Shown: positions 6,142 to 7,413 of the stretch, piece after piece
How the letters are laid out: each line of letters opens with the position of its first letter
How positions within the stretch are numbered: position 1 is the stretch's first letter
IMG/VR virus record: IMGVR_UViG_3300038701_001123
Coordinates: 165-64,164 of that record
Reading direction: 5' to 3' (one strand)
DNA: 64,000 nt
Source of the DNA: a virus
Notes under the pieces: generated by a model
Told to the model about the DNA's origin: nothing
The model's input: only the letters and a program-made list of their open reading frames with translations
Databases searched by the model: none
Translations under genes and position numbers: made by a program

Positions 6142-6873
6142 CTATGTGAGTCGTTTCAGCCCGCCTTGGGCCTGTTGAATTGGACGTTGCAGGTTCACCT
6201 TATCACCTGCGGCCATGCCTTGACCATAGGCACTCATGTTCGCTCTCACACTGCTGCTTCGCGGCTGGCGAAATTGAACATCAGGAAGGATGCTCTTCAA
6301 GCCTTGCAGGACGATCTCCGATTTGACCTCAACGAGATCATTGCCGGTACTGTCATGCTGGACGGTACGGGCTTCCATGAGTGCTTCAAGGCGAGTGTTG
6401 ATACGCTCGGCGAAACCAATCATGAACGACCAGTATTGCGTATGACGCGACACTCCCTCCTTCTTTGGGTTTTCCTTGAGGAACTCCTTCCACCCACGAT
6501 CCATGCTGTCGTGGATCAAGCCCAAGAGGAAGCCGTGCATCGCGACGTCTCCCTTAAAGCCGAAGATCTCAGTAACCTTCTTGTTCCTCACAGTCTGAGA
6601 TCGACCATTCCACGCCAAGGTTCCGCAGTAGCGAGCAATAGTCGTATCGCAGTATTTTTGCGAGGGATGCTCCTGCTTCTGCCTCTGTTCGAAAGTGGCG
6701 CTGGACATGTCGCGCTTGAACTCCACGGCTTTCAGATCTTCCTCTGTGACACCGTGTTTCTCCATCAACTTCTCTGCGATCTGCAGAGCAGCGATGGCTT
6801 CGTCTTCAGTTGCGCCGTTCTCAGGTATCTTCGCCTTGAGTGCAGCAATCTTATCAAGTATTGACTGATCCAT
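6142..6873 (-). CDS. DUF2786 domain protein
   Basis: N-terminal ILDKIAALKAK..ENGATEDEAIAALQIAEKLMEKHG pattern; start after GAAAGGCTACC leader. Confidence 0.7.
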   Translation of the reverse strand: MDQSILDKIAALKAKIPENGATEDEAIAALQIAEKLMEKHGVTEEDLKAVEFKRDMSSATFEQRQKQEHPSQKYCDTTIARYCGTLAWNGRSQTVRNKKVTEIFGFKGDVAMHGFLLGLIHDSMDRGWKEFLKENPKKEGVSRHTQYWSFMIGFAERINTRLEALMEARTVQHDSTGNDLVEVKSEIVLQGLKSILPDVQFRQPRSSSVRANMSAYGQGMAAGDKVNLQRPIQQAQGGLKRLT

Positions 6874-6890
6874 TTGGTAGCCTTTCATTC

Positions 6891-6975
6891 TGGTGGAGAC
6901 ACCGGGGCTTGAACCCGGACCGGCCTAATGCTTTTGACAGCGACGGCCTGCTCTGACCGATTAAGCTATGTCCCC
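6891..6975 (-). ncRNA. tRNA-like RNA with Ala identity acceptor (G3:U70, A73, CCA) and non-canonical anticodon arm
   Basis: GGGGACA/TGTCTCC-A-CCA acceptor, D arm GCTT/GAGC, T arm CCGGG-TTCAAGC-CCCGG; anticodon arm is 27 nt rather than 17. Confidence 0.8.
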
Positions 6976-6982
6976 AAATCTT

Positions 6983-7090
6983 TTACTGATCTGAGAACAT
7001 TTGTTCCAGATAGTGCGGCGGCGCAATGGCGAACCCGAGTTTGATCAGGCTATCCGCTGCCCATGCGCGCACGAAGTTAATTAGGAACAT
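6983..7090 (-). CDS. Small hypothetical protein (35 aa)
   Basis: GGAG RBS, MFLINFVRAWAADSLIK... Confidence 0.4.
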   Translation of the reverse strand: MFLINFVRAWAADSLIKLGFAIAPPHYLEQMFSDQ

Positions 7091-7123: not shown

Positions 7124-7163
7124 AGTATACAGTCAAGACAAGCTGCGGACCAATTCTATTTGT
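7124..7163 (-). promoter_or_regulatory. Early promoter, family copy 4
   Basis: ACAAATAGAATTGGTCC-N17-TATACT. Confidence 0.7.
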
Positions 7164-7206: not shown

Positions 7207-7208
7207 TT

Positions 7209-7281
7209 TTGATGTGACCGGGATCGAACCGGCTACCCTCTGATTAGAAGTCAGATGCTCTACCAAATGAGCTACTCATCT
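7209..7281 (-). tRNA. tRNA-Arg(UCU)-like gene with defective acceptor stem, no encoded CCA
   Basis: Anticodon arm TCTGA-CTTCTAA-TCAGA, D arm GCTC/GAGC, T arm GCCGG-TTCGATC-CCGGT; acceptor AGATGAG/CACATCA has two A:A mismatches. Confidence 0.7.
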
Positions 7282-7324
7282 AGACCAGGATCTTTTCGAG
7301 CATTCGCCGCATTTTACTCTCATA

Positions 7325-7413
7325 ACCAGCGCTCTACCACTGAGCTACCCGCCAGCAGTCCAACGATAAGGGTGTTGGATGGCGGGGCCGGATTTGAACC
7401 GACGACCTCTGTT
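7325..7413 (-). ncRNA. Circularly permuted tRNA-like domain (Y-RNA/YrlA-like topology)
   Basis: On the minus strand the 3' half (AACAG-AGGTC-GTCGG-TTCAAAT-CCGGC-CCCGCCA-T-CCA) precedes a 21-nt linker and the 5' half (TGGCGGG-TA-GCTC-AGTGGTA-GAGC-G-CTGGT); 7/7 acceptor pairs. Confidence 0.85.

Follow-up and report, generated by a model that had tools for sequence, protein, structure and literature searches.

Introduction

Phage tRNA genes are usually ascribed to codon supply and, lately, to escape from anticodon nucleases. In phage tRNAs described as nuclease-evading (PMC10264068), the anticodon loop departs from that of the host but keeps its 7 nt and decodes, and the anticodon stems of non-canonical decoders reach at most 6 bp (PMC7609411). 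The tRNA-like domain (TLD) of transfer-messenger RNA (tmRNA) has alanine identity without an anticodon, and mycobacteriophage DS6A encodes a TLD-only tmRNA-like gene, for which titration of SmpB is proposed in the passage of PMC4131195 that cites Mao et al. 2009. YrlA, a Y RNA (RF02553; PMC4201824), joins a tRNA-like core of D arm, T arm and acceptor to another module that has taken the place of the anticodon arm; it is circularly permuted, ends in the replaced arm, and has a loop-closed acceptor and a GNCGAA site for Ro60. Here we describe a phage RNA gene that shares features with each of these systems. It lies on the minus strand at 6891..6975 of a 64 000-nt window (the whole stretch of DNA that was analysed), which makes up nearly all of the 64.6-kb IMG/VR virus record IMGVR_UViG_3300038701_001123, estimated to be 99% complete. 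The gene couples an alanine-marked tRNA body to a rebuilt anticodon arm, and the literature searched describes no RNA of this design. On balance, we lean towards reading it as a small, selected, exchangeable and non-decoding mimic derived from tRNA-Ala, which would act in trans on some host tRNA-binding factor. Such an element would be a tRNA body kept under selection though unable to read a codon and, if the reading is true, a natural charged, non-decoding tRNA outside tmRNA.

Results and discussion

The element is 85 nt long, is read from 6975 to 6891 with its CCA encoded, and runs GGGGACA UA GCUU AAUCGGUCA GAGC A GGCC GUCGCUGUCAAAAGCAUUA GGCC GGU CCGGG UUCAAGC CCCGG UGUCUCC A CCA. Like canonical tRNA-Ala (RF00005), it has a 7-bp acceptor stem with G3:U70, A73 and CCA, a D arm with G18 G19, and a T arm of the UUCRA type. 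The acceptor strands GGGGACA (6969..6975; G3 at 6973) and UGUCUCC (6891..6901 together with A73 and CCA; U70 at 6897, A73 at 6894, CCA at 6893-6891) pair as G1-C72, G2-C71, G3:U70, G4-C69, A5-U68, C6-G67 and A7-U66. The D arm GCUU / AAUCGGUCA / GAGC occupies 6950..6966 and includes A15 (partner U48), and the T arm CCGGG / UUCAAGC / CCCGG occupies 6902..6918. Unlike canonical tRNA-Ala, with its 17-nt anticodon arm, the element has a 27-nt arm, GGCC-GUC-GCU-GUCAAA-AGC-AUUA-GGCC (6948-6922), in which a closing helix of GGCC (6945..6948) with GGCC (6922..6925) encloses the 19-nt interior GUCGCUGUCAAAAGCAUUA (6926..6944) with a GCU/AGC hairpin and the loop GUCAAA. The variable loop GGU (6919..6921) measures only 3 nt, and judging from the letters the tertiary partners A15:U48, G45 and A26.G44 should still be available.

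G3:U70, A73, the encoded CCA, the normal D and T arms and the 27-nt arm had been named in a preliminary description of the locus, and all are present in the sequence. The minimum-free-energy fold, closing helix included, is exactly the cloverleaf drawn there; in the arm folded alone, the drawn hairpin accounts for 90% of the ensemble (z = -2.55). The Rfam tRNA model (RF00005) recognizes the window copy above its cut-off (44.1 bits against 29, E 4e-6 for the window), in a match that spans model positions 1-71 and handles the arm as a 26-nt local insertion, and our own covariance model of the family (R1) gives it 100 bits. ARAGORN in default mode makes no call on the element, which agrees with the check proposed earlier. 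The marks that would place it with tRNA-Ala (G3:U70, A73, G1-C72, G2-C71 and G4-C69) are all in place and are kept in the variants described below, except for G1A in contigs L107/L108. By anticodon-arm geometry, in contrast, the element falls outside tRNA, since its closing helix has 4 bp and its interior 19 nt, against the 5-bp stem and 7-nt loop of a tRNA.

The element is real and reproducible. The same 85 nt recur base for base in Logan assembly SRR15330770 and in NCBI assembly GCA_019826085.1, and copies that differ only by G1A are found in ENA ERZ23500228 and Logan SRR15682925. The 35-amino-acid (aa) protein encoded next to the element occurs in exact form on at least 24 contigs, 22 of them 50-200 kb long. 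Because independent assemblies carry the element unchanged, the arm is not an assembly error, and the sequencing-error alternative raised earlier falls. It took exact-protein look-ups in Logan, ENA and NCBI assemblies to find the homologs; these look-ups returned four further variants at the same junction, between a small open reading frame (ORF) and a DUF2786 gene. DUF2786 proteins 85, 81 and 76% identical to that of the window led to the contigs with a diverged element (L111/L112, L114/L119 and L115).

All variants retain GGGGACA...UGUCUCC-A-CCA and the D and T stems, and G1A is the sole change in the 5' acceptor strand; the 3' strand with A73 and CCA is the same in 5/5 variants. The D stem is constant apart from U13.G22, which is U13-A22 in L115, and the T stem is constant while the T loops of homologs vary (UUCAACU, UUCGACU). 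Variation is concentrated in the arm. The window copy has GGCC, GUCGC UGUCAAAA GCAUU A, GGCC GGU; L111 has GGGUC, GCCGC CUUAAAA GCAUC A, GAUCC GGU, which L115 shares except for its variable loop GAU; and L114 has GCC, ACCGC CCUCAAAA GCAUC A, GGUC GGU. Across the variants the arm is 26-28 nt long, with a 3-5-bp closing helix, an 18-19-nt interior, and the retained blocks CGC and UYAAAAGCAUYA. That homologs would keep G3:U70, A73 and CCA while the arm varied had been set out in advance as a check, and it is what we observed.

Among variants, the body outside the arm is 88-95% identical, far above the 50-63% at which third codon positions in the adjoining gene agree (Fisher p 1e-5 to 7e-11); for the arm region the figure is 64-77%. 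The neighbouring genes of the carriers have diverged to 73-79% nucleotide identity around a nearly constant body. By these comparisons the body is under purifying selection. In the arm, the closing helix is re-formed in other letters (GGCC/GGCC versus GGGUC/GAUCC), with one compensatory pair (C-G to U-A). The R1 realignment left the register of the window arm unfixed, and helices 3 and 4 are therefore more paired than the counts suggest. A tRNA pseudogene would change as fast as neutral sequence and show lesions all along its length; the window family does not fit this picture, although the eroded copy on one scaffold (L083, below) does.

The element behaves as a cassette of ~100 nt, placed between the 35-37-aa ORF and the DUF2786 gene inside their operon. 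Contigs L110 and L111 have identical flanking proteins; apart from 97 nt that are present in L111 and cleanly missing from L110, the surrounding DNA matches at 96-100%. L111 and L115 share an element that is 96% identical in flanks that are 73-74% identical, whereas L114 and L115 share a small ORF (96% identical) and differ in the arm. Because of this clean indel and these two mosaic patterns, the cassette, judged by sequence, is gained, swapped or lost as a whole unit, as accessory phage genes are. The pair L111/L110 is also a natural presence/absence pair that makes the role of the element directly testable.

We propose that the element would be transcribed from the operon promoter, cut by RNase P at its 5' end, and freed at its 3' end by cleavage in the A/U-rich tract after the CCA. 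Host alanyl-tRNA synthetase (AlaRS) would then charge it, since this enzyme recognizes the acceptor stem regardless of the anticodon. G3:U70 is said to be the major AlaRS determinant and to work in minihelices, in work associated with Hou and Schimmel in 1988 and Francklyn and Schimmel in 1989. Because AlaRS ignores the anticodon, alanine identity is among the few that would let a tRNA stay chargeable with a rebuilt anticodon arm, and this indifference may explain why such look-alikes keep being alanine-type. The arm is about twice the normal length, for which reason the element should be unable to pair with a codon in the ribosomal A site. The preliminary description had spoken of a chargeable RNA that cannot decode normally: the tRNA-Ala body without normal decoding stands, and alanylation we regard as probable, as an inference from the acceptor stem. 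The roles suggested there, an EF-Tu or ribosome decoy, a rescue factor or a nuclease-resistant tRNA mimic, are conjectural. The charged RNA would work in trans by imitating tRNA, or serving as a decoy, towards a host factor that binds tRNA; candidate targets are EF-Tu, SmpB, and a nuclease or modification enzyme directed at the anticodon. Such an accessory function may pay only in some hosts, and a host-limited benefit would explain the loss of the element in some lineages. Defence and counter-defence, the logic behind nuclease-evading phage tRNAs, would fit this patchiness; those tRNAs are likewise phage-borne with an anticodon loop unlike that of the host, but they decode, which the element is predicted not to do. 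If a target is found, the element would represent a new class of small RNA tools in phage-host conflict.

Several observations weigh against a selected mimic acting in trans. The element is dispensable in some lineages: it is cleanly absent from L110, and at least nine more distant relatives are without it. TARA scaffold L083 (96% protein identity, ~3% flank divergence) has the same tRNA-Arg, promoter and ORF and retains only a remnant, from which three deletions have removed the stop codon with the 5' end, the T loop, and a 23-nt stretch bounded by the two GGCC copies. The family comprises few sequences (five distinct ones), its body stems never vary, formal covariation in the arm amounts to one pair, and L114 favours another arm fold. 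Part of the body conservation could stem from recent exchange between phages and not from long-term selection. No partner emerged either. Among the phage proteins there is no Ro60 (TROVE) and no DUF2828; the best duplexes of the arm with the phage sequence (-20 to -21 kcal/mol) equal background, with no second copy of the arm. The DUF2786 protein has no sequence match in PDB and no Foldseek match at E <= 0.001, only weak KH-like rows.

Among alternatives, a cis-acting processing signal comes first, though we consider it unlikely. In such 'tRNA punctuation', an RNase P/RNase E site would split the messages of the small ORF and the DUF2786 gene and set the 5' end of the latter, and the released RNA would be idle. 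The position of the element is suggestive: it lies inside the operon, directly after the upstream ORF (7 nt in the window, 0 nt in L114/L115), and ends 17-18 nt ahead of the DUF2786 start codon, with the conserved leader GAAAGGCUACC between. Where relatives lack the element, only 6-10 nt separate the stop of the small ORF from the next ATG, a tight coupling, and the deletions in L083 bring back such close spacing. For processing, however, shape alone suffices, yet G3:U70, A73, CCA and the full acceptor sequence are invariant and the blocks of the arm are kept; the enlarged, conserved loop would also be left unexplained.

The small ORF (MFLINFVRAW...; 6983..7090, minus strand) encodes 35 aa in the window. 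In L114 (1195-1215) and L115 (1195-1215), the corresponding 37-aa ORF ends at a TAG that is U8-A9-G10 of the element, a 10-nt overlap of coding sequence and RNA gene. In L083 (135-345), the small ORF without its stop reads through the remnant to a TGA, the last base of which lies 12 nt before the DUF2786 ATG; the read-through restores the close stop-start spacing typical of phages that never had the element. Eight IMG/VR relatives (DUF2786 proteins 61-77% identical) have the stop of the small ORF abutting the next start and no tRNA-like gene, and further metagenome relatives are alike. One relative, 97% complete, is devoid of tRNAs.

The promoter, AATAGAATTGGTC-N18-TATACT (7124..7163, minus strand; motif 7160-7126), belongs to a family seen 3-4 times in the window against 0.2 expected. 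It had been described as the element's own. The same promoter is kept upstream of the small ORF in relatives without the element, and it is for this reason the operon's promoter and not the element's. Downstream, the DUF2786/DUF7168 gene (Pfam; 6142..6873, minus strand) starts at ATG 6873 behind the leader GGCUACCAA, which is common to the relatives. A start at 6888, as in the mechanical ORF, is probably wrong: homolog alignments begin at residue 6 of this longer ORF, and gene calls on other contigs give a 243-aa protein, consistent with ATG 6873. The AlphaFold2 (AF2) model of the protein has a predicted local distance difference test (pLDDT) value of 83.

A second alternative, that the element is a disabled tRNA-Ala gene and a functionless passenger heading for deletion, we judge quite unlikely. 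It draws on the confinement of the element to one sub-clade, where it is patchy, on the erosion in L083 at only ~3% flank divergence beside an intact tRNA-Arg, and on the clean loss in L110. Database searches with the window variant also speak for it. Exact and degenerate DNA patterns (5' half, arm with the GGCC helix, apical hairpin with T arm, 3' junction) had no match in IMG/VR; and a 23-mer of the arm and a body pattern had none in GTDB genomes. A phage tRNA-Ala(UGC), that of Caulobacter phage CcrSC, has an anticodon stem and variable loop similar to the 3' half of the arm, AAGCAU(U/C)AGG. A blastn search against INPHARED phages gave only matches of E ~3, to tRNA-Ala of Caulobacter phages. 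A search with a pattern of D arm and T loop yielded ordinary tRNAs of many isotypes, and ranking the collected tRNAs by similarity of body to the element did not single out tRNA-Ala. From the negative searches in IMG/VR and GTDB and from L083, our initial reading was an orphan, decaying pseudo-tRNA, which the homologs overturned. A passenger does not account for a body far more conserved than neutral sites (p <= 1e-5), for damage that is all within the arm, or for an arm that keeps its closing helix in different letters. The same non-canonical design is moreover present in four diverged lineages, and the intact allele in many samples.

Interference with trans-translation is, in our estimation, very unlikely. 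Here the element would be a look-alike of the tmRNA TLD that titrates SmpB (or AlaRS/EF-Tu) and blocks ribosome rescue, for which DS6A and the SmpB-titration idea quoted in PMC4131195 provide a precedent. The two share alanine identity without an anticodon and are phage-encoded, and some variants have the T loop UUCAACU or UUCGACU. With the Rfam tmRNA model (RF00023), L111, L112, L114 and L115 score 28-31 bits, more than with the tRNA model; these matches rest on acceptor and T arm and lie below the family cut-off of 47. The window copy had no tmRNA match in the Rfam search, and ARAGORN (-m) finds no tmRNA. Unlike the tmRNA TLD and the DS6A gene (the latter compared by description), the element keeps its D arm complete, G18 G19 included, has a helix at the position that SmpB would take, and lacks pseudoknots, a tag frame and the SmpB-type gap; frames from GCA reach the 3' end without a stop. 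A mini-tmRNA was likewise rejected, as ARAGORN calls none and no frame holds a stop codon. YrlA was also considered as a class: the Y RNA model (RF02553) has no match on 6891-6975, and the element, unlike YrlA, has normal topology and no Ro60 motif.

That the element decodes after all is highly improbable. It might do so as tRNA-Ala(CGC), if an insert of 11-12 nt at 37/38 were removed, since every variant has CGC, an alanine anticodon, at what would be the anticodon position of a 7-nt loop, or as an Ala-charged reader of Leu UUR codons through U33-YAA-A37-A38, since the inner loop is CUUAAAA, (C)CUCAAAA or (U)GUCAAAA and the sole triplet change, U to C, keeps a Leu anticodon. In intron mode, ARAGORN reads the window copy as tRNA-Ser(GCU) with a 10-nt intron at 37/38, the canonical site, but with C33 and a G31.A39 mismatch; it gives Leu(UAA) with 6 nt for L111, Met(CAU) with 11 nt for L115, and no call for either L107 or L114. 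Once spliced, the loop would have C33 in 3/4 variants and a pyrimidine at 37, both wrong for a working loop, and the invariant CGC is a possible relic. The fold has a 3x4 internal loop and not the staggered bulges of a bulge-helix-bulge, and the phage proteins include no splicing endonuclease (PF01974, EndA), no RtcB and no ligase for splicing. We know of no short protein-spliced tRNA introns in bacteria. An intron-containing pre-tRNA, which the preliminary description had listed as a refuting alternative, accordingly finds no consistent model, as isotype and intron differ from variant to variant. Unspliced, the inner loop would be farther from the elbow, by ~5 bp, than A-site decoding allows, and misreading Leu codons as Ala has no evident benefit.

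Two after-the-fact leads bear on what a non-decoding mimic might display. The conserved block U-Y-A-A-A-A-G-C-A-U is built like the anticodon loop that tRNA-Leu(UAA/CAA) has in E. coli, including its A36-A37-A38 run. Complementarity also links this block to the CUUUUAA loop of tRNA-Lys(UUU), extending over 7 nt in L111/L115 and over 5 nt in the window; the complement of the block, ATGCTTTT, is not enriched in the phage. More broadly, the element may belong to a wider, undescribed phage RNA class, a rather doubtful extension, in which AlaRS-chargeable tRNA bodies have turned the anticodon loop into a display loop. The UYAAAAG loop would soak up a host anticodon nuclease or tRNA-sensing defence, or shield tRNAs from it, and the charged body would protect the RNA from decay.

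Related sequences and neighbourhood

In IMG/VR, 72 contigs (44 distinct) matched a pattern of GGGG...CUCCA tRNA bodies whose D and T arms lie 30-40 nt apart. One set of 10 distinct sequences, here termed family 2, is found at L071:4243-4325(-), L052:13990-14075(-), L055:8100-8184(-), L012:10688-10773(-), L072:128-214(+), L061:4627-4712(+), L059:3619-3703(-), L062:307-391(-), L018:4363-4449(-) and L027:3756-3845(-). Its pairs 1-4 with G3:U70 are invariant; covariation is seen in pairs 5-7, in the T stem and in a closing helix of 3 bp, and the family has a UAAAAC block. Like the element, family 2 and the ACUGAUCAA-loop group described below combine invariant G1-G4 pairs with G3:U70 and A73, a normal tRNA core, a short closing helix and a large loop with an A-rich block; unlike the element, family 2 has a palindromic interior and a 5-nt variable loop, does not encode CCA, and often lies beside ordinary tRNAs and not by DUF2786. 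The self-complementary stretch in its arm varies yet stays a palindrome (GUGAUCAC, GUGGCCAC, GUGUACAC, GUUGCAAC, GUAUGCAUAC, GUUUGCAAAC), which suggests pairing between two molecules or a site at the DNA level. The best match of model R1 outside the element's own family is the family 2 member on L071, at 61 bits. The two share a logic, and common descent is putative.

The window encodes a tailed phage, with PHROG matches to a tape-measure protein, portal, DNA polymerase, primase, helicases, ribonucleotide reductase and ligase, and nearly all its genes are on the minus strand. Its relatives stem from marine metagenomes, including TARA, and the carriers of the element are related marine siphoviruses. 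Upstream of the element lie a normal tRNA-Arg(UCU) (7208-7282, minus strand) and, near it, a terminator-like hairpin. At the site where the window and its closest kin have this tRNA-Arg(UCU), the relatives L003 (2425-2475) and L001 (1960-2010) have only a D arm and an anticodon stem-loop of the tRNA-Lys(UUU) type (CUUGA UUUUUAA UCAAA), which runs into a terminator hairpin. Farther upstream, ~350 nt from the element, a YrlA-like permuted tRNA mimic at 7327-7411 (minus strand) scores 36.7 bits, below the cut-off. It has an internal discriminator and CCA after the acceptor 3' strand, and is kept in relatives (L001:1823-1948, L003:2286-2403, L007:2246-2363) even though the phage lacks Ro60.

A third group of GGGG...CUCCA bodies is present at L009:3157-3233(+), L016:891-968(+), L035:4191-4267(+) and L063:4671-4753(-) and on ~20 further IMG/VR contigs. 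These have a covarying 4-bp anticodon stem (CGGG/CCCG, UGGG/CCCA, CCGG/CCGG) and a 9-11-nt loop with the palindrome UGAUCA (ACUGAUCAA, in an 11-nt loop), and ARAGORN wrongly types the group as tRNA-Ser.

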